Assembly (NCBI GenBank): GCA_006546595.1
Contig: VIAD01000012.1
Location: forward strand, 14,122-46,121
DNA: 32,000 nt
Direction: 5' to 3'
From: Moraxellaceae bacterium AER2_44_116
GTDB lineage: Bacteria; Pseudomonadota; Gammaproteobacteria; Pseudomonadales; Moraxellaceae
The translations under genes were made by a program, and so were the position numbers. This document shows, piece by piece, positions 1-29,513 of this stretch. The notes beneath the pieces are model-generated. The model searched no databases. It saw only the letters and a program-made list of their open reading frames with translations, and was not told where the DNA came from. Each line of letters begins with the position of its first letter. Positions within the stretch are counted from its first letter, which is position 1.

Positions 1-1
1 G

Positions 2-7135: not shown

Positions 7136-7996
7136 ATGGCTACTTCCATTTTTGGGTGCGCAACAAGTAGTGGCAATGATGCAGAATTCAGAGCCGCAGG
7201 TAGTGCCATTTCAGCGGCTTTGAGTGGCATGTTGACCCGTGTGACGACATCCAGTGACATCAATTGGGCAACAGTCGCAAGACCAACGACGGATAATACA
7301 TTTGAAGCAACATTCGATGTTTTTCGTTTTAATGATGCCGCACAAGCGACACATCCGCTATTTCTGAAGTTTGAATATGGTCGCTACACCAGCACATCAC
7401 CTATTCATATTCGCTTAACGATTGGTAAAACGTGTAGCGGTGCGGGTGTATTGGGAGGGATTGTTTTTCCTGCTACGGTCATTACGTCATATAGTGCGGG
7501 TGCATCTTCTACGATATACAGCTCATATATTAGTAACGGTGATGGCCATTGTTTATGTTTGGCAATAACCCCTGCAAATAATGCCATCCTGTTAATGATT
7601 GAACGAGCCATTGATAGTAATGGTGCAGTGCTAGGTAACGGTCTGTGGGTGGCATTTAAAAGTGAAGGCACAATGACAAACTATTTTTGTGCTTACGATT
7701 CGGGGGCAAATACAAATTACACGGGTGGTATTTTCCCATCCTTGTCACCTCTTAGCTCTGGTCAATCCTTTGCGAACGGTTCGATTACGCCCTATTTTCC
7801 AGCCGCGTGTTTTGCGCCTAATGGTTTGTATTGGATTCCCCGTGCGGCATTGGGTGGTGCATTGGCTGATTGTTCTTTGGGTACTACACGATCAGCACTA
7901 TTAGATGGTAATACGTATTTAGGCGTTGGCAATGCGGGTAGATTCAGCGACCAACGTGGCCAAAGTTATTCTGGGTTATTGATGCGTTGGAGTTAA
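7136..7996 (+). CDS. Hypothetical virion protein (Gly/Ser/Thr/Ala-rich)
   Basis: 286-aa ORF starting 5 nt after the previous stop. No recognisable catalytic motif. Confidence 0.5.
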   Translation: MATSIFGCATSSGNDAEFRAAGSAISAALSGMLTRVTTSSDINWATVARPTTDNTFEATFDVFRFNDAAQATHPLFLKFEYGRYTSTSPIHIRLTIGKTCSGAGVLGGIVFPATVITSYSAGASSTIYSSYISNGDGHCLCLAITPANNAILLMIERAIDSNGAVLGNGLWVAFKSEGTMTNYFCAYDSGANTNYTGGIFPSLSPLSSGQSFANGSITPYFPAACFAPNGLYWIPRAALGGALADCSLGTTRSALLDGNTYLGVGNAGRFSDQRGQSYSGLLMRWS

Positions 7997-8150: not shown

Positions 8151-8177
8151 CAGCAGCAGACCATCCATTAAACTAAT

Positions 8178-8209: not shown

Positions 8210-8212
8210 ATC

Positions 8213-9118: not shown

Positions 9119-9120
9119 TC

Positions 9121-10409: not shown

Positions 10410-10420
10410 GGTGAATCATT

Positions 10421-10900: not shown

Positions 10901-10906
10901 ATTTAC

Positions 10907-10935
10907 TTGAATGTATTAAATTAAGTTGTTATAAG
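10907..10935 (+). promoter_or_regulatory. Candidate sigma70-type promoter for the cas operon
   Basis: TTGAAT (10907-10912), a 17-nt spacer, then TATAAG (10930-10935), in the AT-rich 105-nt gap upstream of cas3. Pattern match only. Confidence 0.3.
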
Positions 10936-10962
10936 TTAGCAGGATTCATGTAATAAATTAAT

Positions 10963-10978
10963 TTAACTTGCCAAAAAG
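10963..10978 (+). repeat. Degenerate copy of the boundary motif (TTAACTTGCCAAAAAG)
   Basis: It shares TAAC and TGCCAAAA with GTAACCCTGCCAAAA, but the linker is 1 nt rather than 2 nt. It lies between the last phage gene and cas3. Confidence 0.3.
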
Positions 10979-11005
10979 AAGACTAAAAATCAGGGATGGA
11001 TTTTA

Positions 11006-13447
11006 ATGGACAACTATGTCGCACATGTTCGTAAGATTGATGGACAAAAGCAAACAGTTCAACAGCATCTATTAAGTGTCAGTGACATTACAGGTCAGTT
11101 GGCAAATAAAATTGGACTAAAAGAAGCGGGTGAGCTTATTGGCTTGCTTCATGATTTTGGCAAGTATAGCCAGTCTTTCCAAAACTACATCCAGTCGGCT
11201 ACAGGGATTCTAAACTCTGATTTAGATGATGATTTTGTAGATATAAATGCACTAAAAGGAAAAATTGACCACTCATCGGCAGGTGCACAATGGATATGGC
11301 AACAATTCAGCCAAAGGCTTAATGGTGTAGGTGCACTATGTGCACAGATTATGGCTTTATGTATAGCATCACATCACAGTGGATTAATTGACTGTTTAAA
11401 GCCAGAAGGCGTGGATAGCTTTAGTGATCGAATGAAAAAATCTGATGAAAATACACATTTATCAGAGTGTAAGTTAAATGCGGACTCTCTCATTCTAACT
11501 AAAGCAACAGCACTCGCAGATCCTCATCTTCTAAAAAATATGTTCATGCAGTTACAGGCTGTTTTACGGCCTGAGCAACATAATCAAAAAATTTCAGAAA
11601 AAATTAAATATTTCTATTTAGGCTTTTGGACAAGACTTCTCTTCAGTTGTTTGATCGATGCAGACAGAATAGATAGTGCTGATTTTGAACGACCTCAAAA
11701 TAAAAAGCATCGACGAAATACTCCTGTTAATTGGTCATTGGCAGTTGATAGAGTTGAGTCTTTTATTGATGCACTCAAAGTACGTCACAAGGTTGATGAA
11801 ATTCGCCGTGATATTTCTGAACGCTGTAAAGCCAAAGCAAGTGGTACGCAAGGTATTTATACTTTAACAGTGCCTACGGGGGGTGGAAAAACCTACGCTA
11901 GTTTACGTTTTGCATTACATCATGCGCAAGCGCATGGACTGGACAGAGTTATTTATATTGTGCCATACACCACGATTATTGAGCAGAATGCAAAAGCAAT
12001 TCGTGCAGTCGTTGAACGTGAAGGTGATGATTTTCCGTGGGTATTAGAACATCATTCAAATTTAGAACCAGAGCAGCAAACATGGCGTAGTAAGCTAGTT
12101 GCTGAGAATTGGGATTCACCTATTGTTTTGACAACAATGGTGCAGTTTTTAGAAACTCTATTTAGTGGTGGTACACGCGGTGTAAGGCGAATGCATCAAC
12201 TCACAAATAGCGTAATTGTCTTTGATGAAATTCAAACGCTACCCATTAATTGCACGCATTTATTTTGTAATGCACTTAATTTCTTAGCAACTCATACTAA
12301 AACAACAGCGGTGCTATGTACGGCAACACAACCTTTGTTGCATCGGTTAAAAAATACTGAAAAAGGGCAGTTGTTTATTCCTGTTGAAAACGAGTTGGTT
12401 CATGATGTGGATCGGCTTTTTCAACAACTTGAGCGGGTTAAGATTAAAAATAAAGTTCGTGTGAATGGTTGGAGTGAGCAAGAAATCGCCAAGCTTGCTC
12501 TTGATGAGTTGAACGAAAAAGGAAGTTGTCTTGTTATCGTCAATACTAAAGCATGGGCGCAGAAGTTATATGAAGCCTGTACAAAAAAAGTAGAAAAAGG
12601 ATCGATCTTTCATTTGAGTACCAGTCAATGCCCTGCACATCGTCAGATTATTCTAGCGCAAGTACGCTCTCGGTTAGATCATAACTTGCCTGTGTTATGT
12701 ATAAGTACCCAACTGATTGAGGCGGGTGTTGATGTTGATTTTGCAAGTGTTATTCGATTTTTGGCAGGCTTGGACTCTGTGGCGCAAGCAGCAGGTCGTT
12801 GCAATCGAAATGGTGAGCGAGATATATCTGAAGTCCATTTACTTAATCCAGATCAAGAGCCAATAGACACATTAGTTGATATTAAAGTTGGTCAGGAAAA
12901 AATACGGCGTATTTTAGATGAGTCCGCAGATAAAGATTTGTTAACCCCAGCGGTTATGGAAAAGTATTTTGATTATTATTTTTATAGCCGATCCGCCGAA
13001 ATGGATTATCAATTAACTGAAAAGCAGGCTACTCGAACTGATAGTTTGTTGAATTTACTGAGTGATAATCCTAAAAATATCATATCACGCCAATCTGCAA
13101 TACCTATGTTACGACAGTCATTTATGACAGCGGGCAAAGCATTTAAGGCAATTGATGCACCTACTGAATCTGTGATTGTGCCTTATGGTGAAGGAAGGCA
13201 ACTAATTATTGATCTAGGAGATCAAGAGAATGAGTTTGATGTTGCTCGTTATTATACATTACTGAAAAAAGCACAAAAATTTAGCGTTAATGTCTTTCCT
13301 AATGTTTGGCGAAAGCTGCTTGACGCACATGCTGTATGCGAAATAAAAGCGGGTGAAGGCATTTATTGTTTGGATAAGCGTTACTACAGTGAAGCTTTTG
13401 GATTATCAACTGAGGTTGTTAGTCAGGCTGATTTTTTATCATTTTAG
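11006..13447 (+). CDS. cas3: Cas3 nuclease-helicase (HD domain plus SF2 helicase), type I
   Basis: 813 aa. HD motifs are present (LLHDFGKYS, ASHHSGL, LIDADRIDS). Helicase motifs are present: motif I (VPTGGGKTY), motif II (VFDEIQ) and motif VI (AAGRCNRNG). Confidence 0.95.
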   Translation: MDNYVAHVRKIDGQKQTVQQHLLSVSDITGQLANKIGLKEAGELIGLLHDFGKYSQSFQNYIQSATGILNSDLDDDFVDINALKGKIDHSSAGAQWIWQQFSQRLNGVGALCAQIMALCIASHHSGLIDCLKPEGVDSFSDRMKKSDENTHLSECKLNADSLILTKATALADPHLLKNMFMQLQAVLRPEQHNQKISEKIKYFYLGFWTRLLFSCLIDADRIDSADFERPQNKKHRRNTPVNWSLAVDRVESFIDALKVRHKVDEIRRDISERCKAKASGTQGIYTLTVPTGGGKTYASLRFALHHAQAHGLDRVIYIVPYTTIIEQNAKAIRAVVEREGDDFPWVLEHHSNLEPEQQTWRSKLVAENWDSPIVLTTMVQFLETLFSGGTRGVRRMHQLTNSVIVFDEIQTLPINCTHLFCNALNFLATHTKTTAVLCTATQPLLHRLKNTEKGQLFIPVENELVHDVDRLFQQLERVKIKNKVRVNGWSEQEIAKLALDELNEKGSCLVIVNTKAWAQKLYEACTKKVEKGSIFHLSTSQCPAHRQIILAQVRSRLDHNLPVLCISTQLIEAGVDVDFASVIRFLAGLDSVAQAAGRCNRNGERDISEVHLLNPDQEPIDTLVDIKVGQEKIRRILDESADKDLLTPAVMEKYFDYYFYSRSAEMDYQLTEKQATRTDSLLNLLSDNPKNIISRQSAIPMLRQSFMTAGKAFKAIDAPTESVIVPYGEGRQLIIDLGDQENEFDVARYYTLLKKAQKFSVNVFPNVWRKLLDAHAVCEIKAGEGIYCLDKRYYSEAFGLSTEVVSQADFLSF

Positions 13448-13456
13448 AAAGGAGTC

Positions 13457-14176
13457 ATGATGGAAGTTCCTAAAAATAGTATTAGTTTCCGATTGTGGGG
13501 GCGTTATGCGTTATTTACTGACCCTATTACTAAAATCGGTGGTGAGAAATGCTCCTATCATATTCCTACTTATGAGGCGATTAAGGGTGTTTTGAAGTCG
13601 ATTTATTGGAAGCCTACTATTACATGGTATGTCGATAAAGTTAGGGTGATGAAACCGTTAAGAACGCAAACTAAAGGTGTAAAACCCTTAGTTTGGAGTG
13701 CTGGTGGCAATAGCCTTGCTATCTATACGTTTTTGCACGATGTTGAATATCAAGTACAAGCGCATTTTGAATGGAATGAGCACCGTCCTGAATTGGCTCG
13801 GGACAGAGTTGATGGTAAGCATTTTAGTATTGCTAAACGAATGTTAGAAAAAGGTGGACGGCAGGATGTTTTTTTGGGGACACGAGATTGTCAGGGTTAT
13901 GTAGAGCCTTGTGAGTTTGGTGAGGGAGAGAGTCCTTACGCTAATATTGACGAATTGGGTTTTGGGTTGATGTTTCATGGCTTTGATTATCCTGATGAAA
14001 CAGGAGTGGATGAATTGCGTAGCCGTTTTTGGCGAGCAAACATGAGGCATGGCATTATTGAATACCCTAGACCTGAAAATTGTGAGATTAATCGTTTTGT
14101 TCGAGTGATGACTGCCAAAGAGTTTGCGCTAGGAGAAAGCGTATTAGCAGTAGAGCAAGAAGAGGTGCAATCATGA
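13457..14176 (+). CDS. cas5: Cas5c (Cas5d) pre-crRNA endoribonuclease, type I-C
   Basis: 239 aa. The N-terminus FRLWGRYALFTDPITKIGGEKCSYHIPTYEAIKGVLKSIYWKP is characteristic of subtype I-C Cas5. AAAGGAG lies upstream. Confidence 0.93.
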   Translation: MMEVPKNSISFRLWGRYALFTDPITKIGGEKCSYHIPTYEAIKGVLKSIYWKPTITWYVDKVRVMKPLRTQTKGVKPLVWSAGGNSLAIYTFLHDVEYQVQAHFEWNEHRPELARDRVDGKHFSIAKRMLEKGGRQDVFLGTRDCQGYVEPCEFGEGESPYANIDELGFGLMFHGFDYPDETGVDELRSRFWRANMRHGIIEYPRPENCEINRFVRVMTAKEFALGESVLAVEQEEVQS

Positions 14177-16185
14177 GTTGGATGGCAAAGCTCTACGAGA
14201 CATATGAAGCAGGTTTGTTACTGACAGACCTGCCTGATGATAAGCGTCTTATGCCCACTAGCCACACATTGCAAAATGCACATATCAATATTGCTATTGA
14301 TGGTGAAGGAAATTTTAAACGAGCATCTGTACTAGAAAAAACGCAAATTGTATTACCTGCTACTGAACGTTCAGCAAGTCGTAGTAGTGGTGAGGCTCCA
14401 CACCCATTAGCGGATAAATTGCAATATGTTGCTCAAGATTATGCTGCTTATGGTGGACTGAAAAAGCCTTATTTTGATGGATATAAAAAGCTTCTTTCTT
14501 CATGGTGTCTTTCTGAATTTTCTCATCCCAAAGCAACAGCAGTTTTACGTTATATTGAAAAAGGGACTGTGATTAAAGATCTTATTGATCAGAAAGTTGT
14601 TTTTATTGGTGATGATGGACTGTTATTAACATCATGGGTAAATGCTACAGATGATTCCAATCCGACACCAACACTTTTTAAGGTGCTACCTAAAGAAAAA
14701 GGTTTATTAGATCAAGGCTCTGCGTTGGTGTGTTGGACGGTTGAAATAGACTCTAATCCTAATGCCGACACATGGAAGGATAGAACGCTACAGGATAGTT
14801 GGATTGCTTTTGATAACTCTGAAGATAGTGAAGCGGGTTTATGTTTTGTCACAGGTAAAGTTCAATCATTATCTATTAATCATCCTGCAAAAATTCGCCA
14901 CTCAGGAGATAAAGCAAAGCTAATTTCTTCAAACGATACCAGTGGATACACGTATCGGGGGCGGTTTTTGGATAATAAGGAGGCGTGTGGCGTAGGGTTT
15001 GATGTATCGCAAAAGGCTCATAATGCCTTGCGTTGGTTGGTTTCACGGCAAGGTTATCGTAATGGTGATCAGGCATTTGTCTCTTGGGCTGTTTCTGGTA
15101 AAGACATTCCCGAACCATTACAAGACGCTTTTCATTTGTTTTCAAATTTTAATTTTGATGATTTAGATGATAGTGAACCGCATAGATTAAATGAAGATAC
15201 TGTTATAGATCGTAGCCGTGATATAGGCGAGTCATTTGCCCATCAACTTAATAAATACATGGCAGGCTATCGAGCAAAATTAGATCCAAATGAGCAAATT
15301 GTAATTATCGGCCTTGATGCAGCAACGCCAGGGCGAATGGGTATTATTTATTACCGTGAGTTATTAGGCAGTGAGTTTTTACAAAGGCTTGAACATTGGC
15401 ATAAAAGCTTTGCATGGCCACAAAGACATACCATAGACGTGCCTAGCTTATCAGGTAAAAAACCAACGAAAAAAGTTGTTTGGCCTGTCAGTTCCCCTGC
15501 ACCTAAAGATATTGCTTCTGCGGCATATGGGCAGCGGCTATCAGATGAATTGAAGAAAAGCGTGGTTGAGCGTCTTATGCCGTGCATTATTGATGGAAAT
15601 CCATTTCCAATCGATTTAATGGATTCATGTGTACGAATGGCCACTAATCGCAATGGTTATAAAAGTGACGAACAATGGCTTTGGGAAAAGAACCTTGGTA
15701 TTGCCTGCGCGGTATATCGTGGTTATTTCCAACGCCATCCAATTAAAACTCAAAGGAGAGACTACACAATGGCACTGGATGAAAATAATCACTCGCGTGA
15801 TTATCTCTATGGCCGATTATTAGCCGTAGCAGATCGTATTGAGGAGGTTGCATTAAGTGTTGGTGGAGAGAGTCGATCAACAACCGCAGCCCGTTTAATG
15901 CAACGTTTTGCGGATAGACCTTTTTCTACATGGCGTAATATAGAGTTGGCCTTGCAACCGTATATGCAGCGTTTGCAAAACTCCCGCGCTGGTTTTTTAG
16001 TGAACCAAAAGAAAGAGTTGGATGCAATCAATGCCAATTTTAAAACTGAAGACTTTGTGAGTGAAAAAAAGCTATCAGGTGAGTTTTTACTTGGCTTTCA
16101 TTGCCAACGTCAAAAACTAAGAGAAAAAACTGAGTCAACTAACGAAACCATTAACGAAGTAAGCAGTGCAGGGAGTGAAGAATGA
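14173..16185 (+). CDS. cas8c: Cas8c (Csd1) large subunit, type I-C
   Basis: 670 aa. It sits between cas5c and cas7c with ATGA overlaps at both ends. Its size and position are diagnostic of the I-C operon order. Confidence 0.9.
   Translation: MSWMAKLYETYEAGLLLTDLPDDKRLMPTSHTLQNAHINIAIDGEGNFKRASVLEKTQIVLPATERSASRSSGEAPHPLADKLQYVAQDYAAYGGLKKPYFDGYKKLLSSWCLSEFSHPKATAVLRYIEKGTVIKDLIDQKVVFIGDDGLLLTSWVNATDDSNPTPTLFKVLPKEKGLLDQGSALVCWTVEIDSNPNADTWKDRTLQDSWIAFDNSEDSEAGLCFVTGKVQSLSINHPAKIRHSGDKAKLISSNDTSGYTYRGRFLDNKEACGVGFDVSQKAHNALRWLVSRQGYRNGDQAFVSWAVSGKDIPEPLQDAFHLFSNFNFDDLDDSEPHRLNEDTVIDRSRDIGESFAHQLNKYMAGYRAKLDPNEQIVIIGLDAATPGRMGIIYYRELLGSEFLQRLEHWHKSFAWPQRHTIDVPSLSGKKPTKKVVWPVSSPAPKDIASAAYGQRLSDELKKSVVERLMPCIIDGNPFPIDLMDSCVRMATNRNGYKSDEQWLWEKNLGIACAVYRGYFQRHPIKTQRRDYTMALDENNHSRDYLYGRLLAVADRIEEVALSVGGESRSTTAARLMQRFADRPFSTWRNIELALQPYMQRLQNSRAGFLVNQKKELDAINANFKTEDFVSEKKLSGEFLLGFHCQRQKLREKTESTNETINEVSSAGSEE
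15769..16185 (+). CDS. cas11: Candidate internally translated Cas11c small subunit (in frame within cas8c)
   Basis: In-frame ATG (Met533 of Cas8c) preceded by AAGGAG (15753-15758) with a 10-nt spacer. It would give a 138-aa helical C-terminal product, MALDENNHSRDYLYGRLLAVADRIEE.... Confidence 0.5.
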   Translation: MALDENNHSRDYLYGRLLAVADRIEEVALSVGGESRSTTAARLMQRFADRPFSTWRNIELALQPYMQRLQNSRAGFLVNQKKELDAINANFKTEDFVSEKKLSGEFLLGFHCQRQKLREKTESTNETINEVSSAGSEE

Positions 16186-17021
16186 GTAGTCTTGACCATA
16201 AAATTGATTTTGCGGTTATTTTTTCAGTAAAGAACGCCAATCCAAATGGTGACCCATTAAATGGTAATCGTCCTCGTACCGATTATGACGGACTTGGTGA
16301 AATAACGGATGTTTGCTTGAAGCGCAAAATTCGTGATCGTTTGCAAAGTGATGGATATTCAATATTTGTCCAATCTGATGAAAAGAAAACGGATGGCATG
16401 ACTAGCTTAAAAAATCGTGCGGATTCTGATGTTTATGGACTGGGAAAAGACGCGTTTAAAAAGAACAGTAAAGATGAAACAGCAAAGCTTGCCTGTGCAA
16501 AATGGCTAGATGTTCGTGCGTTTGGACAGGTATTTGCGTTTGCAAAAGAATCTGATGCAGCAGGTGTATCTATAGCTATTAGAGGCCCTGTGACAATTCA
16601 ATCTGCATTTAGTCGTGAGCCAATTAGTGTTACCAGTACACAAATAACCAAAAGCGTGAGTGGTGAGGGTGATGGCTCTAAAAAAGGATCGGACACGATG
16701 GGTATGAAACATCGTGTTGATAAAGCTGTTTATGTGACATATGGTGCAATAACACCACAATTGGCAGAGCGTACAGGCTTTAGTAATCAAGATGCTGAAA
16801 GCATTAAGTCGGTATTGCAGAAGTTATTTGAAGGCGATGCATCATCGGCGCGTCCAGAAGGTAGCATGGCTGTATTAAAAGTTATTTGGTGGAAACATAA
16901 CAGCAAATCAGGACAATACTCCTCCGCTAAAGTGCATAACTCTTTGACAGTAAATCCTGATGGTAGTTTTAATTTAGATGATTTAGATGGATTGACTCCA
17001 GAAGTTATCGACGGCTTTTAA
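16182..17021 (+). CDS. cas7: Cas7c (Csd2) backbone subunit, type I-C
   Basis: 279 aa. The N-terminus DFAVIFSVKNANPNGDPLNGNRPRTDYDGLGEITDVCLKRKIRD is a classic Csd2/Cas7 signature. Confidence 0.93.
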   Translation: MSSLDHKIDFAVIFSVKNANPNGDPLNGNRPRTDYDGLGEITDVCLKRKIRDRLQSDGYSIFVQSDEKKTDGMTSLKNRADSDVYGLGKDAFKKNSKDETAKLACAKWLDVRAFGQVFAFAKESDAAGVSIAIRGPVTIQSAFSREPISVTSTQITKSVSGEGDGSKKGSDTMGMKHRVDKAVYVTYGAITPQLAERTGFSNQDAESIKSVLQKLFEGDASSARPEGSMAVLKVIWWKHNSKSGQYSSAKVHNSLTVNPDGSFNLDDLDGLTPEVIDGF

Positions 17022-17030
17022 TGGGATAGT

Positions 17031-17051
17031 GCCACCTTCGGGTGGCTTTTT
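17031..17051 (+). terminator. GC hairpin with a TTCG tetraloop plus T5 between cas7 and cas4
   Basis: GCCACC (17031-17036), TTCG loop, GGTGGC (17041-17046), then TTTTT (17047-17051). It fills most of the 36-nt cas7-cas4 gap. Confidence 0.55.
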
Positions 17052-17057
17052 CTAAGG

Positions 17058-17717
17058 ATGGAAAAAGTGATGCAACATGATGAAATAATATACCTTTCCC
17101 GCCTTCAGCATTTTTTGTTTTGTCCGCGTCAATTTGCCCTTATTGAATTAGAAGGTCTGTGGGAAGAAAATCTCTACACGGCTGAAGGACAGCTATTACA
17201 CCAAAAAGCAGACCAACTCCAACAGCACACACGCAAAAATATTACAACAATAAATGCCATGCCATTGTCATCCTCTGAGCTAGGTATTCAAGGTGTGGCA
17301 GATGTCGTTGAGTTCTATAACTCTCAGGACGATGGTAGTCATCGACCTTTCCCCATTGAATATAAACGTGGTAAGCCAAAAGAGCATCGCGCAGACGAAG
17401 TACAACTTTGTGCCCAAGCTTTATGCTTGGAAAGTATGTTAAACACGGTTGTCCCAGAAGGAGCCTTGTTTTATGGCCAAACAAAACGGCGATTGGTTGT
17501 AACGTTTGATGCAGAGTTGAAGAAACTAACTTTGGATGTTATTGCGAAATGTCGAGAGTTATTAGTCACAGCTAAAACGCCTGCACCAATTTACGAAGAA
17601 AGAAAGTGTAATCGTTGTTCATTGATAGACTTATGCCATCCAAAAACGTTGTGCCGTCAACGCTCCGCAAAACATTGGTTTATAAAACAATTAGAAAAAG
17701 AACAAGGAGGAACTTGA
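17058..17717 (+). CDS. cas4: Cas4 RecB-like exonuclease with an Fe-S cysteine cluster
   Basis: 219 aa. There is an N-terminal Cys (FCPRQFAL), a PD-(D/E)xK-like core (GVADVVEF...EYKRGKP) and a C-terminal CNRCSLIDLC cluster. ATG 17070 is an alternative start. Confidence 0.9.
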   Translation: MEKVMQHDEIIYLSRLQHFLFCPRQFALIELEGLWEENLYTAEGQLLHQKADQLQQHTRKNITTINAMPLSSSELGIQGVADVVEFYNSQDDGSHRPFPIEYKRGKPKEHRADEVQLCAQALCLESMLNTVVPEGALFYGQTKRRLVVTFDAELKKLTLDVIAKCRELLVTAKTPAPIYEERKCNRCSLIDLCHPKTLCRQRSAKHWFIKQLEKEQGGT

Positions 17718-18757
17718 TGCGTCAGTTACGCAATACATTATATGTCAGTACAGAAGGAGCTTGGCTACATAAGGATGGTGAAAATTTGGTTATGGATGTT
17801 GACGGACAGAAAAGAGGTCGCGTTCCTATTCACATGCTGCAAGCATTAGTCTGTTTTGGACGAGTGATGTTGTCACCTCAATTGATGGGTTTCTGTGCAG
17901 AAAAAGGTATTACGGTGACTTTCCTCAATACCTACGGAAAATTTTTGGCGCGAATGGAAGGACCCATTAGCGGTAGTGTGTTATTACGGCGGCGACAACA
18001 CTTAGCATGTGAAAATCCGATCATGGCTTTAGAGATCGTGCGTAATATCGTATGCGCCAAAGTGCATAATCAGCGTGCGGTGGTCAGGCGAGTAATACGT
18101 GACCATGCTGAAAAAATGGACGATAAAGCCAATGGCGAGCTAGAAGATGCACAAAAAAGACTAAAGCGTGTGATTGAATGTGTTCGTTTAGAAACGAATA
18201 TTGAAAGTATTCGAGGTTTTGAAGGTGATGCAGGGCATGTGTATTTTAAGGTGTTTAATCATTTTATTCGTGCTCAAAAAGAAGACTTTATCTTCGATGG
18301 GAGAGAAAGGCGGCCTCCCCGTGATCCTGTCAATGCGCTATTGTCATTTATCTATACATTACTGACTCATGATTGTCGTTCGGCCTTGGAGACAACTGGG
18401 TTGGATTCGGCTAGTGGTTTTTTACATTTTTTGCGGGTTGGTCGTCCTAGTTTGGCTTTAGATTTAATGGAAGAGTTTCGGCCTTTTTTGGCTGATCGAC
18501 TGGTATTGTCGCTTATTAATCGAAAACAGATACAAGCGAGCGACTTTAGTTGTTTGCCCAACGGTGCTGTTGTTATGAAAGATGACGCACGAAAAACTGT
18601 ACTTATGGAGTGGCAGCAACGTAAAGCCGACACACTAACTCATCCGTGGTTTGAAGAAAGTGTGCCTGTAGGTCTTTTTCCGTGGTTGCAAGCACAATTA
18701 TTAGCCCGACATTTACATGGCGAGATAGATGCTTATGTGCCATTTTTATGGAAATAG
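17717..18757 (+). CDS. cas1: Cas1 integrase
   Basis: A start at ATG 17717 (MRQLRNTLYVSTEGAWLHKDGENLV...) overlaps the cas4 TGA by 1 nt and follows AAGGAGG. The track start at 17615 lies inside cas4 and is rejected. The product is 346 aa. Confidence 0.93.
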   Translation: MRQLRNTLYVSTEGAWLHKDGENLVMDVDGQKRGRVPIHMLQALVCFGRVMLSPQLMGFCAEKGITVTFLNTYGKFLARMEGPISGSVLLRRRQHLACENPIMALEIVRNIVCAKVHNQRAVVRRVIRDHAEKMDDKANGELEDAQKRLKRVIECVRLETNIESIRGFEGDAGHVYFKVFNHFIRAQKEDFIFDGRERRPPRDPVNALLSFIYTLLTHDCRSALETTGLDSASGFLHFLRVGRPSLALDLMEEFRPFLADRLVLSLINRKQIQASDFSCLPNGAVVMKDDARKTVLMEWQQRKADTLTHPWFEESVPVGLFPWLQAQLLARHLHGEIDAYVPFLWK

Positions 18758-18778
18758 GTTAATTCATGGAGAGGCGAC

Positions 18779-19069
18779 ATGATGGTATTGGTGAGTTACG
18801 ATGTCTGTTTTCAAAATGATACAGGAGCACGTCGGTTGCGAAGAATAGCAAAAGCTTGCTTAGATTATGGGCAAAGGGTGCAGTATTCGATCTTTGAGAT
18901 TGAGGTAACGCCAGCACAATGGACAATGTTACGGAGTCGCTTATTACAAGAAATTGATCCTGAAGTAGATAGTTTGCGATTTTATTTTTTAGGAAAAAAT
19001 TGGCAGCCAAAGGTTGAACATATTGGAGCTAAGGCTGTTTTGGATTTGAATGGCCCATTGATTTTTTAG
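18779..19069 (+). CDS. cas2: Cas2
   Basis: 96 aa. The MMVLVSYDV... N-terminal beta-strand motif and the position after cas1 support the call. Confidence 0.92.
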   Translation: MMVLVSYDVCFQNDTGARRLRRIAKACLDYGQRVQYSIFEIEVTPAQWTMLRSRLLQEIDPEVDSLRFYFLGKNWQPKVEHIGAKAVLDLNGPLIF

Positions 19070-19257
19070 GCTTGTAGAACATCTGCGAACCTTAAGTAAG
19101 CATTAAAATGCAGGTAGGTTCGCACCTTGTTTTTTGCATATAAAACAAGGTGCTCTTTAAAACTATATTTTTTATTCTAGATGATTGTTCGGTTTCATTA
19201 TGTGTTCGCATTTTAGTGGAAGATGTGCATTTGAAAACAGTATGTTATAACTAGACT
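19070..19257 (+). promoter_or_regulatory. CRISPR leader (AT-rich)
   Basis: 188 nt between the cas2 stop and the first repeat. It is AT-rich. Repeats read ...ATTGAAAC on the + strand, and the degenerate repeat is at the far end. This fixes the leader at this end and + strand transcription. Confidence 0.8.
19084..19153 (+). terminator. Two overlapping stem-loops just downstream of cas2
   Basis: TGCGAACCT (19084-19092) pairs with AGGTTCGCA (19116-19124). GCACCTTGTTTT (19122-19133) pairs with AAAACAAGGTGC (19142-19153) across an 8-nt loop, followed by T/A-rich sequence. The two stems share 3 nt, so they are mutually exclusive. Confidence 0.45.
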
Positions 19258-22200
19258 GTCGCGTCCTCACGGGCGCGTGGATTGAAACGCCTTTTTTAAG
19301 AGCTGTCTTAACGACCGCCACGTCGCGTCCTCACGGGCGCGTGGATTGAAACGTCGGTTGTTGATGATGATGGAATGCCGTTTGATCCGGTCGCGTCCTC
19401 ACGGGCGCGTGGATTGAAACCATTGAAATAACGTGACCTTGCGCTGCATAAACGGGTCGCGTCCTCACGGGCGCGTGGATTGAAACGGCAATTTATCCAA
19501 CGCACAGACAGGCATATTAGGCGTCGCGTCCTCACGGGCGCGTGGATTGAAACGGCTTTATATTTAGCGCAAGATTTTAAAATCTATTGTCGCGTCCTCA
19601 CGGGCGCGTGGATTGAAACTTAACAGGTTTATCAACCGATGCAAACGCTAGTCGTCGCGTCCTCACGGGCGCGTGGATTGAAACATCAAATGTACGACCG
19701 TATTATTGTCCTCAACAAGTCGCGTCCTCACGGGCGCGTGGATTGAAACGTCCCTACGCTCATCGTCGTGTAACACTCGGCTGTTGTCGCGTCCTCACGG
19801 GCGCGTGGATTGAAACAACTGACCGCTAGCACCGTCACTAATGAAAAAGTCGCGTCCTCACGGGCGCGTGGATTGAAACACTCAACAGTACACCCCTGTC
19901 GATGTCCCTAAAGGTCGCGTCCTCACGGGCGCGTGGATTGAAACTACGCCTATTGGTAATGTAATGTTGATTGCTGCAAGTGTCGCGTCCTCACGGGCGC
20001 GTGGATTGAAACAGTTTAAGGAATTATGGCAGATTAAAGCCTTGCCATGTCGCGTCCTCACGGGCGCGTGGATTGAAACACTAATGATGCCGATGGTCTT
20101 GCGTATGCTTATGAGTCGCGTCCTCACGGGCGCGTGGATTGAAACAGCGTATTAAAAACCAAACAAGGCGCGTCTTTAAGGTCGCGTCCTCACGGGCGCG
20201 TGGATTGAAACTATCGTGTAATAGAGTCGTTGGTTATTGTGTCGATGTCGCGTCCTCACGGGCGCGTGGATTGAAACAACGGACCCGATGGCGCATTGGT
20301 ATTGGCAAATGGTCGCGTCCTCACGGGCGCGTGGATTGAAACTGCTTGTGTAAGTCGATTTACGGATAACTGTGCTCGGTCGCGTCCTCACGGGCGCGTG
20401 GATTGAAACACCCGATGACGGTTTGCGTAACGTCACACTGGTGTCGCGTCCTCACGGGCGCGTGGATTGAAACGGCAGCGAGAGCAATTGACAAGGAAAG
20501 ATCTGCATTGTCGCGTCCTCACGGGCGCGTGGATTGAAACAATGCGCGGCACAATAATGAATCTGTGGCCTGGGTCGCGTCCTCACGGGCGCGTGGATTG
20601 AAACTAGGTTGTGAATAACAACTGCTATGAAAAACACGTCGCGTCCTCACGGGCGCGTGGATTGAAACTAGTGAGTGTTGGCCCACCTGTATCAAGAGCT
20701 AATCGTCGCGTCCTCACGGGCGCGTGGATTGAAACATGCAGTATGTAGCAGGTGAATCCCGTTTTATCCGTCGCGTCCTCACGGGCGCGTGGATTGAAAC
20801 ATCGTCTTGAGTTATCAACTCACCAACAACTGATGGTCGCGTCCTCACGGGCGCGTGGATTGAAACTTTGCTTGCAGTGTGGTAGCGATTTCCAGCATTT
20901 CGTCGCGTCCTCACGGGCGCGTGGATTGAAACATTCGCCAATTGCTGATGATAGTTATCGTCGTATTGTCGCGTCCTCACGGGCGCGTGGATTGAAACAT
21001 TAAAAGAACAAATAAAAAGCGGATGCAATAGCGTCGCGTCCTCACGGGCGCGTGGATTGAAACTACTTGGCCTGCCAATGTGTCACGGGCTTGGTTTAAG
21101 TCGCGTCCTCACGGGCGCGTGGATTGAAACTGCATAACGGGCGTGACTAACGGTTTTACTAGGTCGCGTCCTCACGGGCGCGTGGATTGAAACTTGTGCG
21201 GGATAGTTAAAGCCGCAAAAATCAACAGTCGCGTCCTCACGGGCGCGTGGATTGAAACTTTACCGCTCCAAAAAATCCCATTCAATTGATACGGTCGCGT
21301 CCTCACGGGCGCGTGGATTGAAACGTCTGATAACTCATCAATGCCAAAATGTTTTTTTAGTCGCGTCCTCACGGGCGCGTGGATTGAAACTTCAAAATTG
21401 AAAGCGATGATTTAAGATAAACGTGTGTCGCGTCCTCACGGGCGCGTGGATTGAAACAAATATGCTTTGGGAATTTCTCAAGAATCCTGAGTCGCGTCCT
21501 CACGGGCGCGTGGATTGAAACTTTTATTGTCATTGTCATTTTTTGAATCCTCATGCTGTCGCGTCCTCACGGGCGCGTGGATTGAAACATTTGATACGCC
21601 AAAAAATACGCAATTTAAAGTTGTCGCGTCCTCACGGGCGCGTGGATTGAAACGTGGTCTTGGCCAATGCCTTGAAACTTACTGTCGTTGCGTCGCGTCC
21701 TCACGGGCGCGTGGATTGAAACACCACGTAAGTGATATTTGTGCGAGTAATAGTTAATGTCGCGTCCTCACGGGCGCGTGGATTGAAACATTTAGTGCTT
21801 TTTCGCCACGATCTTCATATGGCTCACGTCGCGTCCTCACGGGCGCGTGGATTGAAACAATCGCCTACAAGAGCAATTTACAGGGAAATATGCGTCGCGT
21901 CCTCACGGGCGCGTGGATTGAAACCGCTATTTTGTATGCCTGACGCACTAGCATCACTATGTCGCGTCCTCACGGGCGCGTGGATTGAAACTTATACTAC
22001 GCGATATATAGCAACAGTGAAAAGAACGTCGCGTCCTCACGGGCGCGTGGATTGAAACGTTCGGACTGCCGCCATATCGCGCAATACAAGCCTGTCGCGT
22101 CCTCACGGGCGCGTGGATTGAAACGGGTATTGGTGGATTTTGATTTTGTGAAACGTGGGGGGTCGCGTCCTCACGGGCGCGTGGATTGAAACAAGCCTAC

Positions 22201-25200
22201 GCGCCCAAATCAAACAATTAACGGTACGTCGCGTCCTCACGGGCGCGTGGATTGAAACGGTGTTGTTCGTCGTTATGGTGCGAGTCAATCCAATGTCGCG
22301 TCCTCACGGGCGCGTGGATTGAAACATTGGGACTACCACCGTATCTCGCTATACAAGCTTGTCGCGTCCTCACGGGCGCGTGGATTGAAACTTAATCAGT
22401 CCGTCCTTTTTCCCGTTTTTATCAATGTCGCGTCCTCACGGGCGCGTGGATTGAAACTCAGCACAAATACGACTTAGATTTTTATAGCATCGTCGCGTCC
22501 TCACGGGCGCGTGGATTGAAACTTCTAAAGCCGATACTGTTCAATCTGCTTCTAAAGTCGCGTCCTCACGGGCGCGTGGATTGAAACATATAGTCAGGAA
22601 ATTTACTACGTAATTTAAACTGGTCGCGTCCTCACGGGCGCGTGGATTGAAACTCTAGCTCGTTAAGCTGATCTGTTATCGCTTTCTTTGTCGCGTCCTC
22701 ACGGGCGCGTGGATTGAAACGTTTTGATGGCAGACCAAAAGCCGAAGAAGCGTGGGCGTCGCGTCCTCACGGGCGCGTGGATTGAAACCCGTGATGAGAT
22801 ACACCTTTCCAGATTTTGGCTTAGTCGCGTCCTCACGGGCGCGTGGATTGAAACTCTGCACTGATAGAGATATTTGTTTTACTCTTTGAGGTCGCGTCCT
22901 CACGGGCGCGTGGATTGAAACTTGTTGATAGCAATAAAATCCCGTTAGATATGGCAGGTCGCGTCCTCACGGGCGCGTGGATTGAAACACATCATGGCGG
23001 CGACTATAGCAAGATAAAAACGGTCGCGTCCTCACGGGCGCGTGGATTGAAACCCATCACAGCGATAATAAGCACTCATTTTTTAACAAGTCGCGTCCTC
23101 ACGGGCGCGTGGATTGAAACAAAGTGGCATAAACCGCTTTGAAGTAGTCGTTAAAGTCGCGTCCTCACGGGCGCGTGGATTGAAACGTCGAAATGTGAAC
23201 GATGCGCCAAGAGGCGGCAAGTCGCGTCCTCACGGGCGCGTGGATTGAAACACGACAATACCAAGATTTTTACGGCAATAATTTAGGTCGCGTCCTCACG
23301 GGCGCGTGGATTGAAACCTCTATCTCTAGAAGTATCAAACCTTTCTCTAGAGCGTCGCGTCCTCACGGGCGCGTGGATTGAAACAAAAACGCCTACAAGC
23401 TCACTGTCGAGGCTGTAATGGTCGCGTCCTCACGGGCGCGTGGATTGAAACAGACAACAAGCCGTTAACCATTGGGATGACCTCATGTCGCGTCCTCACG
23501 GGCGCGTGGATTGAAACCACTATGACGGTGTCGGGGGAGTTGTTGACTCCAGTCGCGTCCTCACGGGCGCGTGGATTGAAACGTTCTGTCGTTGTTCAGT
23601 GTCTAGGGTCTAACGAAGTCGCGTCCTCACGGGCGCGTGGATTGAAACATTGTGGCAAATTCCGTGACACTTGGGCTTATAATTCGTCGCGTCCTCACGG
23701 GCGCGTGGATTGAAACCGTCTTTGTGTGGCTCTGCTACGCGTAAACCTGCCATGTCGCGTCCTCACGGGCGCGTGGATTGAAACTAGTCCCTTATCGCGT
23801 CTTTGAAACACTCACAAATGTCGCGTCCTCACGGGCGCGTGGATTGAAACTTTAGATCGTAGTAAGTTTGAATATTTACATAAAGTCGCGTCCTCACGGG
23901 CGCGTGGATTGAAACAGGGATTATCTCTTGAGGCGCAGATTATCTACCTGCGTCGCGTCCTCACGGGCGCGTGGATTGAAACGGGCGGCACATGGGCGGC
24001 TGGTTTATCGCAATCAATGTCGCGTCCTCACGGGCGCGTGGATTGAAACTCAATTTTGGCATAAGCAACAACATCTGCGCGTGTGTCGCGTCCTCACGGG
24101 CGCGTGGATTGAAACGACATATTCCATTTTGTTTGACCGGGTGTCGTGAGTCGCGTCCTCACGGGCGCGTGGATTGAAACTTCGTAGGTGTCACTTGGTG
24201 TATAAGAACAGGAAACGTCGCGTCCTCACGGGCGCGTGGATTGAAACATGTTCGTCATCGAAAATTTGATTTTTATTAGGTCGCGTCCTCACGGGCGCGT
24301 GGATTGAAACAGCGAATGCCCGTCAGAACTACATTTTGCTAATAAGTCGCGTCCTCACGGGCGCGTGGATTGAAACAGCCGTAACCACTGTACGCACGGT
24401 ATTTGAACAATGTCGCGTCCTCACGGGCGCGTGGATTGAAACGCCTGTAGCCGCATCAGCCACCGCCTCGACCATCTGTCGCGTCCTCACGGGCGCGTGG
24501 ATTGAAACTTTGACGCTCGGCATTAGTTGGTGATGTTTTGTTGTCGCGTCCTCACGGGCGCGTGGATTGAAACGACGCATGGCCGACTAGCCCACTTGCT
24601 TCTCATAGTCGCGTCCTCACGGGCGCGTGGATTGAAACGTCATCAGTTACGCCTTTGTAGCGTGTTTGATCTTGTCGCGTCCTCACGGGCGCGTGGATTG
24701 AAACCTATTTTTGGTAAATATAACGCGGCAAACACGCAAGTCGCGTCCTCACGGGCGCGTGGATTGAAACATTGAATGTGACATGGATTTTTGTGCATCA
24801 CGTTCGGTCGCGTCCTCACGGGCGCGTGGATTGAAACTTCTTCGGAGACTTGGCGCATTGGCTTACGTTGACGTCGCGTCCTCACGGGCGCGTGGATTGA
24901 AACCATTAAACTCGCACCCCTAAAATTTTATAAACATGTCGCGTCCTCACGGGCGCGTGGATTGAAACCATTGTCAAGCCCTCAATATTTACATAGCTAA
25001 TATGTCGCGTCCTCACGGGCGCGTGGATTGAAACACAGATGCACGTTTGTGGTCTTGGTCGTTATCAAGTCGCGTCCTCACGGGCGCGTGGATTGAAACC
25101 GCCTGAAACGCGCTAAATTCCTCGTCTTTTTGCTTGTCGCGTCCTCACGGGCGCGTGGATTGAAACTCGCATGAAAGCTCATGCAGTGCTGAATGTGCCG

Positions 25201-27687
25201 GTCGCGTCCTCACGGGCGCGTGGATTGAAACCTAAACCTGACGGCTTTGAAGATGAAAGCGAAGTTGTCGCGTCCTCACGGGCGCGTGGATTGAAACATG
25301 GGTTTGATGTAACTGAGATTTGAGTTAAGAAAGTCGCGTCCTCACGGGCGCGTGGATTGAAACAGTAGCATATCCGCCGTATGCAGTTTATCTTGGTAGT
25401 CGCGTCCTCACGGGCGCGTGGATTGAAACGCGCTAAAGCTCGTCGCATCAAGAAAAAACACGGCGCGTCGCGTCCTCACGGGCGCGTGGATTGAAACAGC
25501 TAAAGATACTTTATCTTCGACCCACACATCACGTCGCGTCCTCACCGGGCGCGTGGATTGAAACAAAAGTACCGTACACAACCATACAGAGGATACTAAC
25601 AGTCGCGTCCTCACGGGCGCGTGGATTGAAACTGTATAAGTACCATCGCCATCTGACCCACCACCAATACGTCGCGTCCTCACGGGCGCGTGGATTGAAA
25701 CGTATATATCGGCGCAGGTCGCCATTGATGACGGGGTGTCGCGTCCTCACGGGCGCGTGGATTGAAACACGGCAAGACGTAATTCAGGGTGCATATAGAT
25801 TTGTCGCGTCCTCACGGGCGCGTGGATTGAAACTTTTATTCGCGGCTTTAAATATGAGGAATGTGGTTGTCGCGTCCTCACGGGCGCGTGGATTGAAACA
25901 AAAAATGAAAGTCACACTCAAAAAAGCCAAGTCACGTCGCGTCCTCACGGGCGCGTGGATTGAAACCAAACATTCGCCATCTTCATTTTCTAATGTTGTC
26001 CGGTCGCGTCCTCACGGGCGCGTGGATTGAAACGGGTGTTAGCAGGCGATGGTTAACAATAGGGAAATGTCGCGTCCTCACGGGCGCGTGGATTGAAACG
26101 TCTGTGCTGTTTTTAGGTCAAACATATCAAGGCAAGTCGCGTCCTCACGGGCGCGTGGATTGAAACATAAACACAATTTTATTTTATTTGAAGTTCATAC
26201 AAGGTCGCGTCCTCACGGGCGCGTGGATTGAAACTGGTGCTGTTGTGCGCATTGATGCAGGCGCGGCAGAGTCGCGTCCTCACGGGCGCGTGGATTGAAA
26301 CCCAAAGTTACATTGATTGAACGTAAATGAGTCAGTGTCGCGTCCTCACGGGCGCGTGGATTGAAACGGTGGTTGTTGATATTTATATTGAATCATTGGC
26401 TGGTCGCGTCCTCACGGGCGCGTGGATTGAAACATTCAGTGTAGCCACATCATCTAAGCGCATTTTGTGTCGCGTCCTCACGGGCGCGTGGATTGAAACA
26501 TAGCATACGCTCAGAAAGTGCCGAGCAAGATATTGGTCGCGTCCTCACGGGCGCGTGGATTGAAACAATTTGATGCGTACATTTTTGCAGCCGATTACGA
26601 CGTCGCGTCCTCACGGGCGCGTGGATTGAAACCGCCAACCGTGTGCCTAAAAATCTTAGTGCCTTGTCGCGTCCTCACGGGCGCGTGGATTGAAACAACT
26701 GTCCACCCCAAAGCCGCCGACTCAGGACTAGTCGCGTCCTCACGGGCGCGTGGATTGAAACACAACATTTGCAGCGCGTACCTGTTTTGACTTCATGTCG
26801 CGTCCTCACGGGCGCGTGGATTGAAACGTCTTAAACGACATAACCAACGCACTAAAATAGTCGTCGCGTCCTCACGGGCGCGTGGATTGAAACGCTGCAT
26901 CTTCTAATGACGAAGCCAAAATCAGGTACGTCGCGTCCTCACGGGCGCGTGGATTGAAACCCAGAGATGGCCGCAAAAGCTAAAGCGGTCATGTGTCGCG
27001 TCCTCACGGGCGCGTGGATTGAAACCTCGTACAACTTTAGACACGCAACCGCACCGACAAGTCGCGTCCTCACGGGCGCGTGGATTGAAACCAATTGGTT
27101 TGGGTGCGGCAAAAAGACAGAGCCTTGTCGCGTCCTCACGGGCGCGTGGATTGAAACTGTCGATTCAGGCTCAAAGGGGGGCACTTGCATACGTCGCGTC
27201 CTCACGGGCGCGTGGATTGAAACAATTGAATTGCTTACGGTGATAGAACTATCAATGGGTCGCGTCCTCACGGGCGCGTGGATTGAAACTTGAATTCGAC
27301 ACGCCAAAAAACTTATACAACCCTGGTCGCGTCCTCACGGGCGCGTGGATTGAAACAACGCTGGACAGATTGATAGCAAAACGACAATGGAGTCGCGTCC
27401 TCACGGGCGCGTGGATTGAAACATGTCGGTGAATTTGTCTAGTGTTAGACCGCCGTGTCGCGTCCTCACGGGCGCGTGGATTGAAACATGATTAAGCAGC
27501 AAGCGTGAAGATACTGCTGAAGCGTCGCGTCCTCACGGGCGCGTGGATTGAAACTACCTCCCGTATTTGCTCTTTTACCCAATGAGTCTGTCGCGTCCTC
27601 ACGGGCGCGTGGATTGAAACATCTACGCCGCCAATCATGCAAATGCCGAGGCTAAGTCGCGTCCTCACGGGCGCGTGGATTTGTAAC
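19258..27687 (+). CRISPR. Type I-C CRISPR array: 128 repeats (127 consensus-length plus 1 degenerate terminal) and 127 spacers
   Basis: Hand enumeration of every repeat start, from 19258, 19322, 19390 ... to 27590 and 27656. The 31-nt repeat GTCGCGTCCTCACGGGCGCGTGGATTGAAAC has a GCGTCC/GGGCGC stem, a TCAC loop and a 3' ATTGAAAC tag. Spacers are 32-38 nt and the mean period is about 66 nt. One repeat (25533-25564) carries an extra C. The last repeat matches for 26 nt and then diverges. Confidence 0.99.
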
Positions 27688-27690
27688 CCT
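27683..27690 (+). repeat. Partial boundary-motif copy (GTAACCCT) fused to the terminal repeat
   Basis: The sequence reads ...GCGCGTGGATT-TGTAACCCTCGAACAAAC. The first 8 nt of the phage boundary motif begin 2 nt after the point where the last repeat stops matching. GTAAC could instead be a mutated GAAAC repeat end. Confidence 0.35.
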
Positions 27691-27718
27691 CGAACAAACC
27701 CACTTTTTTATCGCATAC

Positions 27719-27758
27719 CCTAGTCGTAACTTAAAAATCTTACGACTAGGTGTTTTCT
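27719..27758 (+). terminator. 11-bp hairpin plus T-rich tract at the distal end of the array
   Basis: CCTAGTCGTAA (27719-27729) pairs with TTACGACTAGG (27740-27750) across a 10-nt loop, followed by TGTTTTCT. The 3' arm contains the AGG of the likely SD for ATG 27759. Confidence 0.5.
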
Positions 27759-29498: not shown

Positions 29499-29513
29499 GG
29501 GAAGGGCTAGCAT

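Follow-up and report, generated by a model that had tools for sequence, protein, structure and literature searches.

A complete type I-C CRISPR-Cas module inserted in a tailed-phage backbone from a Moraxellaceae assembly, with spacers matching one siphophage family

The window analysed in this work is a whole stretch of 32,000 nucleotides (nt) of contig VIAD01000012.1, assembled from Moraxellaceae bacterium AER2_44_116, and all positions are counted from its first nucleotide. It holds a type I-C CRISPR-Cas module between phage genes, and we consider it probable that a phage carries here, in a slot before a dar-like operon, a complete, horizontally acquired module of ~16.8 kb that is aimed partly at rival siphophages. 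We showed that the module is located in a phage backbone, that its parts are intact, that it is of foreign origin and that its spacers match targets with the correct protospacer-adjacent motif (PAM), while expression, interference and continued adaptation inside the phage are inferred, as are the packaging of the cassette and the phage's lifestyle. The phage-borne type I-C system is apparently functional.

Results

Insertion of the cassette in a single phage backbone

Searches with the left-flank proteins recovered relatives of the window on three viral contigs of IMG/VR and on nine contigs from metagenomes. An earlier note on this DNA had proposed to look for an empty site where position 10900 abuts 27690, and such sites were found in L002 (= L007), L003, L009, L012 and L013, in which the spacing between the 159-amino-acid (aa) open reading frame (ORF) left of the cassette and the DarA-like gene right of it is about 30-280 nt. 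Window 8136-10894 corresponds to L002 9017-11771 (92% nucleotide identity) and window 27716-28992 to L002 11877-13153 (94%), with a gap between the two matching blocks of ~105 nt in L002 and ~30 nt in L003. Across at least five related loci from independent samples, the flank segments share 71-94% nucleotide identity with the window. Since the flanks are adjacent in the relatives, they belong to one backbone, and the 16.8 kb between them are an insertion and not host DNA caught between prophage remnants. Directly upstream the relatives carry tail tube, tail, baseplate spike, portal and terminase genes, therefore the backbone is that of a bona fide tailed phage. The description in the earlier note of an intact CRISPR-Cas locus embedded in, and co-oriented with, phage genes with small gaps was thus borne out, the gap from the last tail-block ORF to cas3 being 105 nt (10901-11005) and that on the right ~72 nt (27687-27758), while the alternative it had offered, a chromosomal locus between two prophage fragments, was contradicted by the abutting flanks.

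The two junctions were located by alignment. On the left, backbone homology stops at 10894-10904, i.e. at the stop codon of the 159-aa ORF (10900), which is the last backbone gene before the slot. Nucleotide homology to the cassettes on the plasmid-like contigs L016 and L018 begins at 10985, 21 nt ahead of the cas3 ATG, and runs on through the leader. On the right, an alignment of six loci contains an invariant GTAACCC, left of which everything differs and right of which everything is homologous; it directly abuts the truncated last repeat (…GTGGATT/T/GTAACCC, 27681-27689). Independent assemblies of two other sequencing runs contain the junctions, the left one in the 17.7-kb contig L001 (SRR9332771; 100% identical over 1602-19285) and the right one in L017 (SRR12684520; 99.6% identical over 27537-32000, last two repeats included), and a chimera is therefore very unlikely; the internal order of the array could still hold assembly errors. 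Among direct and inverted repeats flanking the cassette only one 8-mer was found, which is consistent with chance. No transposase or recombinase was found in or beside the cassette, and scanning the junctions for promoter and terminator consensus sequences yielded no more than is expected from shuffled sequence.

Content and integrity of the cas operon

The operon cas3-cas5-cas8c-cas7-cas4-cas1-cas2 occupies 11006-19069 of the plus strand without interruption, and all seven genes were full length in the Pfam scan, free of frameshifts and internal stops, in the order and at the coordinates first read (Table 1). The start of cas1 was placed at a TTG (17615) by the ORF list and at an ATG (17717) by gene calls in the identical Logan contig L001. 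Catalytic motifs had been described as visible, and for Cas3 this was checked by alignment: residues 3-658 align to the solved Cas3 chains 8zns (E 1e-94) and 8g9u (E 1e-92), and the HD motif LLHDFGK, Walker A GGGKT and motif II DEIQ are retained. The four cysteines and the RecB-type EYK motif of Cas4 were seen by inspection of the sequence by eye only; Cas1, inspected in the same way, is full length. Cas8c gave no sequence match to any chain of a solved structure; nonetheless the Csd1 profile is covered end to end, and TQC96417.1 is annotated as 'type I-C Cas8c/Csd1'.

No cas6 is present, the seven named genes filling 11006-19069 and leaving no space for a further plus-strand gene; in type I-C systems Cas5 is the enzyme that processes CRISPR RNA (crRNA) (PMC7049708). 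The assignment to type I-C follows from the Cas8c signature, the HD-helicase Cas3, Cas5c and Cas7 without cas6, the cas4-cas1-cas2 set, the repeat fold and the TTC PAM. The ratio of nonsynonymous to synonymous substitution rates (dN/dS) was 0.05-0.13 for the cas genes against the plasmid-borne copies and 0.03-0.11 for the flanking phage ORFs against L002, the latter ORFs being intact and of the same lengths as in relatives. Both sets of genes have evolved under purifying selection, as averaged over both compared lineages.

Leader and CRISPR array

Leader and array were confirmed as first read, and the count of 127 spacers is exact. The repeat is 31 nt long, GTCGCGTCCTCACGGGCGCGTGGATTGAAAC, and 126 of the 128 copies are identical, a near-perfect homogeneity that fits a maintained array. 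Its predicted fold, a 7-bp stem, a 4-nt loop and an 11-nt tail ending in ATTGAAAC, is the architecture of type I-C repeats. The last repeat (27656-27686) is degenerate at its 3' end, identity to the consensus stopping at 27681. The sole internal variant, at 25533-25564, has a 1-nt insertion in the hairpin (CACCGGG vs CACGGG), which could impair Cas5c processing of the neighbouring crRNAs. All spacers are distinct and 32-38 nt long.

Two pairs of spacers are diverged copies in register, sp43/sp47 (22059-22093 / 22326-22360; ~27 of 35 positions shared as judged by eye) and sp19/sp40 (20474-20509 / 21859-21893), and these diverged pairs produced the 131-201-nt periodicities reported by Tandem Repeats Finder. 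They suggest that one site was sampled repeatedly in diverged target genomes. A degenerate pattern made from sp43/sp47 found no target in IMG/VR.

A hairpin lies within the leader at 19122-19153, 53 nt past the cas2 stop codon, with a perfect 12-bp stem followed by CTCTTT (-17.6 kcal/mol, z -6.35); an 8-bp inverted repeat lies beside it (19085-19092 / 19116-19123), and the leader of the plasmid-borne cassette in L016 shares this region in part. The hairpin may be the terminator of the cas operon or a regulatory site inside the leader.

Origin of the cassette

The G+C content of the module is 38-42%, compared with 45-50% for the backbone, and the cassette is foreign to the backbone and horizontally acquired. 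The protein identical to its Cas8c, TQC96417.1, is encoded on a 98,553-bp contig of Moraxellaceae bacterium AER2_44_116 together with the flanking proteins. In the closest relative that is not identical, with a Cas8c of 97% identity, an IS4 element splits cas7 from cas4; at L166:3902-5209 (Logan ERR13120689) an IS4-family transposase parts the interference genes from the adaptation genes. Relatives with 94% identical Cas8c lie on two plasmid-like contigs with ParA, a Fic protein and a toxin-antitoxin pair, one of which also has a Rep3 initiator. At 76% identity the context looks chromosomal, beside a small tyrosine recombinase; a 228-aa tyrosine recombinase gene stands divergently just upstream of cas3 at L167:5851-6537 and L168:54-740, and this recombinase may be involved in moving the module. 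Relatives of 70% identity or less were mostly from Methylococcaceae and Nitrosomonas.

The repeats of the window and of the plasmid-borne arrays differ by 1-2 bases, and no spacer is held in common. The close cassettes on plasmid-like contigs and the shared leader indicate that the module moves among mobile elements of this bacterial group, and plasmids are the likely donor pool. The exact repeat was not found in IMG/VR.

Targets of the spacers

The earlier note had also proposed to search the 127 spacers against phage and plasmid databases. Against 50,697 isolate phage records no significant match was obtained, the only candidate being sp79, which matched tape-measure genes of several siphophages at 31 of 35 positions (E 0.1), and against 72,556 plasmid records (PLSDB) there was no match. 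Of the four mismatches of sp79 in these isolate genes, three occupy the same codon position, a pattern that points to a homologous target not yet sequenced. A wobble-degenerate pattern of sp79 recovered 120 IMG/VR contigs; one of them, the 4.7-kb L092, is also matched by sp59 at 34 of 35 positions with TTC immediately 5' of the protospacer. It comes from sample 3300020047, which is also the source of the empty-site relative L003. Further siphophage contigs were fetched with the tape-measure and major-head proteins of L092, and spacers were compared by blastn-short with the IMG/VR loci L024-L165, at least 80% identity over the full-length spacer being taken as a target.

Twelve spacers matched the head-tail module of one siphophage family from IMG/VR, and all lie in the array block 21654..24477 (sp37-sp79; Table 1). 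The motif 5'-TTC precedes 9 of the 12 best protospacer matches, compared with a background of 1.5% (binomial P ~1e-14), and it is the experimentally established PAM of type I-C (bioRxiv 10.1101/2022.06.15.496202; PMC8406640). Reversed-spacer decoys gave no full-length match and none longer than 20 nt. The 11-kb contig L146 was matched by five of the twelve spacers, and its genes encode a head protease, major head protein, adaptor, head closure, neck, tail terminator, major tail protein, tape measure and tail fibre. Since sp37, where the siphophage-matching block begins, at least 36 spacers have been added.

Outside the array no spacer matched the window, and none matched the relatives with an empty slot, the plasmid-like contigs or the temperate Acinetobacter myophage vB_AbaM_ABMM1 (ABMM1), so there is no sign of self-targeting or of targeting of sibling phages. 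The spacers of the plasmid-borne arrays (L016, L018) were compared with the myophage loci as well; the one candidate, a 19-nt match in the portal region of L020, extends to only 20 of 37 positions over the full length, lacks TTC and was rejected as chance. The suggestion of inter-phage or anti-satellite warfare therefore stood in its first part, with twelve siphophage spacers mostly next to a TTC PAM, and not in its second, for which no evidence was found.

Other contents of the slot

The same slot is occupied differently in other relatives. In L010, a 58-kb contig of the lineage of L004, it holds 8.7 kb on the opposite strand with an HsdR/HsdS/HsdM type I restriction-modification system and the candidate defence genes PDC-S26 (PD-(D/E)XK) and PDC-S02 (YhcG/DUF1016); in L011 it holds Arc-like and Rha-like regulators. 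The position upstream of the dar-like operon is thus a cargo hotspot that, in the loci compared, is empty or filled with restriction-modification genes, regulators or CRISPR-Cas. Fixed hotspots with interchangeable anti-phage systems have been described in P2-like prophages and P4-like satellites (PMC9122126). The island of L010 corresponds to 10501-19096 of IMG contig Ga0209599_10000116, the slot being equal to window 10901-27681, and it lies directly upstream of the DarA-like gene; Pfam names DarA for defence against restriction.

A palindrome (Table 1) is found ~10 nt before the start codon of the DarA-like gene, with the invariant GTAACCC ~30 nt further upstream. Its outer CCTAG/CTAGG is conserved and its inner stem varies (GTCGTAA/TTACGAC vs TGACA/TGTCA) with complementarity kept, which suggests a conserved operator or RNA hairpin.

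The DarA-like protein has 579 aa here, compared with 1165 aa in L002 and 1126 aa in L003, both empty-site relatives (window 27759-29498 vs L002:11911-15408 and L003:11843-15223). It is 96% identical over 423 aa to the L002 homologue, and the part missing relative to L002 includes the PBECR3 nuclease domain. The polyvalent protein that follows has 1061 aa, compared with more than ~1770 aa in L002 as estimated from the end of the L002 locus. The loss of length may offset the 16.8-kb cargo, or the variation may have nothing to do with it.

The phage backbone

Terminase, tail fibres, an SLT protein and small structural ORFs, as read at first on the left flank, are present according to PHROG and Pfam. 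The terminase is 40% identical in aa sequence to that of ABMM1 and 86-87% identical to those of the IMG/VR relatives L019 and L020. The genes at 881-3497 gave tblastn matches to ABMM1, Xanthomonas phage Rb1, D6 and P1 gp25. Inside the fibre/baseplate gene, a 108-nt unit stands in tandem at 1464-1678 (2 copies, 83% identity), which would translate into a 36-aa repeat of the fibre shaft. The 905-aa SLT protein would be either tape-measure-like or an internal virion transglycosylase. The genes at 6289-10900 belong to PHROGs 30560, 1801, 4333, 4179 and 4597.

P1 DarA, to which proteins like that of the right flank are tied by name and domain, is an injected anti-restriction protein. For the right flank, the reading as a PPase-fold protein followed by a polyvalent protein held (InPase/DarA_N and LPD1 domains, respectively; the polyvalent protein also has an HExxH motif), whereas its ParB-like N-terminus was matched only weakly (DUF1015, E 0.004).

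The order terminase-fibre-wedge-tail protein is shared with ABMM1 (PMC10345192), which by structural genes is the closest cultured relative and carries an integrase; identity to its structural proteins is low (25-42% aa). By megablast (roughly 85% identity or more) neither the two flanks nor the cas operon matched any isolate phage or PLSDB plasmid, and metagenomes are the only known source of the phage lineage. Scanning the window for tRNAs and Rfam families gave nothing. The source appears to be a myovirus-type tailed phage of a Moraxellaceae (Agitococcus-like) host, structurally a distant relative of ABMM1 and P1, with a genome of probably 80-100 kb.

Table 1. Positions of the features of the window; for spacers the last column gives the identity to the best protospacer match and the PAM.
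Feature	Position	Strand	Basis or remark
Terminase large subunit, C-terminal part, gene cut by left window end	1..811	+	phrog_2
Tail fibre/baseplate protein, Gp10_C domain	881..2089	+	PHROG + Pfam
Baseplate wedge	2071..2364	+	PHROG + Pfam
P1 gp25-like tail protein	2364..3497	+	PHROG + Pfam; tblastn
905-aa SLT-domain protein	3500..6217	+	Pfam SLT; phrog_6922, phrog_4067, phrog_794
Tail-fibre-repeat protein	6289..7131	+	PHROG/Pfam
Unknown ORF	7136..7996	+	open frame
Four conserved phage ORFs	8213-9118, 9121-9882, 9879-10409, 10421-10900	+	phage-only PHROG families
Left junction, 84 nt	10901..10984	.	absent from empty-site relatives and from plasmid-borne cassettes
cas3 (HD nuclease + SF2 helicase)	11006..13447	+	Pfam Cas3_HD, DEAD/ResIII, Cas3-like_C_2; solved-chain alignment
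cas5c (Cas5d family)	13457..14176	+	PF09704, E 1e-47, profile 2-215/217
cas8c (Csd1), large subunit	14173..16185	+	PF09709, E 3.5e-131, profile 1-558/559; = TQC96417.1
cas7 (Csd2)	16182..17021	+	PF05107, E 2.6e-75, profile 2-232/249
cas4 (alternative start 17058)	17070..17717	+	PF01930, profile 3-159/160; 215-aa gene call in L001
cas1 (346 aa from ATG)	17717..18757	+	PF01867, E 1e-102, profile 1-283/283; gene call in L001
cas2	18779..19069	+	PF09827, E 2.7e-25, profile 1-73/74
A+T-rich leader, 188 nt	19070..19257	+	read from sequence; homologous to leader of plasmid contig L016
CRISPR array, 128 repeats + 127 spacers	19258..27686	+	orientation from leader and degenerate last repeat
sp37	21654-21691	+	37/38, TTC
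sp40	21859-21893	+	31/35, TTC
sp49	22458-22491	+	32/34, ATC
sp56	22922-22957	+	33/36, TTC
sp59	23121-23155	+	34/35, TTC
sp60	23187-23220	+	34/34, TTC
sp61	23252-23286	+	29/35, TTC
sp64	23452-23486	+	33/35, CTC
sp73	24050-24084	+	34/35, TTC
sp74	24116-24149	+	33/34, TTC
sp75	24181-24216	+	30/36, TTC
sp79	24443-24477	+	33/35, CTC
GTAACCC, first backbone sequence right of the variable slot	27683..27689	+	invariant in six-locus alignment
Conserved palindrome, 11-bp stem	27719..27750	+	z -6.7; also in L002, L003, L010, L011
InPase + DarA_N protein, 579 aa	27759..29498	+	Pfam; = TQC96421.1
Large polyvalent protein, 1061 aa in full, runs off window	29514..32000	+	open frame; full gene with LPD1 domain in L017

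Discussion

Several points weigh against the reading of a complete, acquired module in a phage that is partly aimed at rival siphophages. No second cassette-bearing relative was found in IMG/VR by the repeat search and a scan for close Cas8c proteins, for which reason the acquisition may be recent and possibly transient. The other 115 spacers have no identified target. The siphophage spacers in the middle of the array could predate the move of the module into the phage, their uptake having taken place on a plasmid or chromosome. Between the tail genes and cas3, neither a sigma-70 promoter nor a terminator could be recognised. The element could be a defective prophage.

The account that survives best beside this reading refines it and is compatible with it, namely that the carrier is a P1-type phage-plasmid which acquired the cassette when it recombined with a Rep3 plasmid resident in the same cell. 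We regard this as possible though somewhat unlikely. The P1 gp25-like tail protein together with the DarA_N protein, the location of the closest cassette relatives on Rep3/ParA plasmid-like contigs and the length of the contig, which at 98.5 kb falls in the P1 size range, all agree with it, whereas no replication or partition gene lies within the 32-kb window, ABMM1 has an integrase, and the similarity to P1 amounts to ~33% aa identity of one protein (gp25-like) over 42% of its length.

It is distinctly improbable that the cassette sits in a defective prophage or domesticated element, where CRISPR-Cas would in effect be a host system and never be packaged. In its favour, only 32 kb are in view, a capsid of headful or fixed capacity would be heavily loaded by a 16.8-kb insert, no other phage with such a cassette was found in IMG/VR, and decay may be reflected in the DarA-like and polyvalent genes, which are much longer in relatives with an empty site. 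Against this, every structural gene in view is intact and evolves under purifying selection, the shortened DarA-like protein retains its two N-terminal domains and its conserved C-terminus in frame, and three data sets show the same junctions.

A chromosomal CRISPR-Cas locus flanked by chance by two prophage fragments, unrelated or degraded, would accord with the clustering of both CRISPR loci and prophages in chromosomal islands, with the binning of the contig into a bacterial genome assembly and with a cas G+C content unlike that of the flanks, yet we give it very little credence, since the flanks are directly adjacent in the five or more relatives described above, the flanking ORFs are intact and of the relatives' lengths with dN/dS <0.11, and other cargo takes the same slot in other relatives. 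An assembly or binning chimera at the junction of phage and CRISPR, which a metagenome-assembled source and the proneness of repeat arrays to misassembly would allow, is just as hard to credit in view of the two junctions recovered from SRR9332771 and SRR12684520.

If the phage carries the module as we propose, its action can be outlined from the established type I-C pathway. The array would be transcribed from the leader, Cas5c would cut each repeat at the hairpin base, and Cas8c, Cas7 and Cas5c would assemble as Cascade around each crRNA. Cascade would then bind protospacers that follow a 5'-TTC PAM and recruit Cas3, which would degrade the target, while Cas1, Cas2 and Cas4 would insert new spacers at the leader end. 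With a memory partly aimed at siphophages, the module would shield the lysogen, and hence the resident phage, from superinfecting competitors, and during co-infection it could eliminate a competitor phage; the targeted siphophage family would come from the same kind of habitat.

A further step, which we put forward as doubtful, is that the module adapts while in the phage, so that the 128-repeat array would be a growing, virion-transmitted immune memory carried from host to host, much larger than any array that the literature cited here reports from phage genomes. If true, a temperate phage would run full adaptive immunity against rival phages and not a frozen guide set, a longer array would come at the expense of capsid capacity, and the reduced length of the DarA-like and polyvalent genes would possibly stem from compensating deletions.

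The window offers a natural example that combines the whole type I-C machinery, a demonstrable insertion, likely plasmid donors and an identified rival target with its PAM. With the intact module, the empty sites, the plasmid relatives and the identified target, it is a tractable case for spacer acquisition by phages, the cargo tolerance of capsids and the traffic of defence modules between plasmids and phages. In addition, it adds a Moraxellaceae myophage lineage, and a slot beside a dar-like operon, to the known settings of prophage defence hotspots.

Phage-borne CRISPR-Cas is already known; what is unusual here is that the adaptation module is kept, that the array is very large and that the history of insertion can be read. 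In RefSeq one complete CRISPR system was counted in 2498 phages and 27 in 26,987 prophages (PMC7145637), and a phage catalogue of 2025 lists 299 CRISPR systems in 741,692 phage genomes, among which I-C is the commonest subtype (120/299), with 116 of these 120 systems lacking Cas1, Cas2 and Cas4 (PMC12676247). The claim of the earlier note that such systems are rare therefore has to be softened: phage-borne CRISPR-Cas is rare, but I-C is its most frequent subtype, and the known systems nearly always have short arrays and no adaptation genes. Huge phages carry several CRISPR types with arrays of 3-23 repeats (printed as '323' and read here as 3-23) and a median of 6 (bioRxiv 10.1101/572362). The present system resembles those of huge phages and of the catalogue in being phage-borne with spacers against structural genes of competing phages, and differs from them in its full adaptation module, its 128 repeats and its probable genome size of 80-100 kb compared with >200 kb.

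In the literature cited here, the Vibrio phage ICP1 is described as encoding a complete type I-F system with adaptation and interference genes (Seed et al. 2013; PMC9071438, PMC7145637). Both cases present a complete phage-encoded type I system engaged in conflict between mobile elements. As portrayed in those sources, ICP1 is lytic and its I-F system has small arrays directed at the host-resident satellite PLE, whereas the system described here is of type I-C, with 127 spacers, a temperate-like backbone and targets in another family of tailed phages.

As accessory cargo against other mobile elements, the module is comparable to the I-C systems of conjugative islands in Pseudomonas aeruginosa and to plasmid CRISPR-Cas (PMC9071438), from which it differs in that the carrier is a tailed phage and not a conjugative element. 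With the hotspots of P2-like prophages and P4-like satellites (PMC9122126) it shares a fixed intergenic slot with variable defence cargo, but the phage lineage and host family are others, the cargo is a 16.8-kb adaptive system instead of small innate ones, and the slot abuts a dar-like operon. Compared with the characterised I-C systems of Desulfovibrio vulgaris, Xanthomonas oryzae and Bacillus halodurans (bioRxiv 10.1101/2022.06.15.496202, PMC8406640, PMC7049708), its 31-nt repeat, a Cas8c without sequence match to solved structures and its genomic carrier are different, while the gene set and order without cas6, the repeat hairpin with an 11-nt 3' tail and the 5'-TTC PAM are the same.

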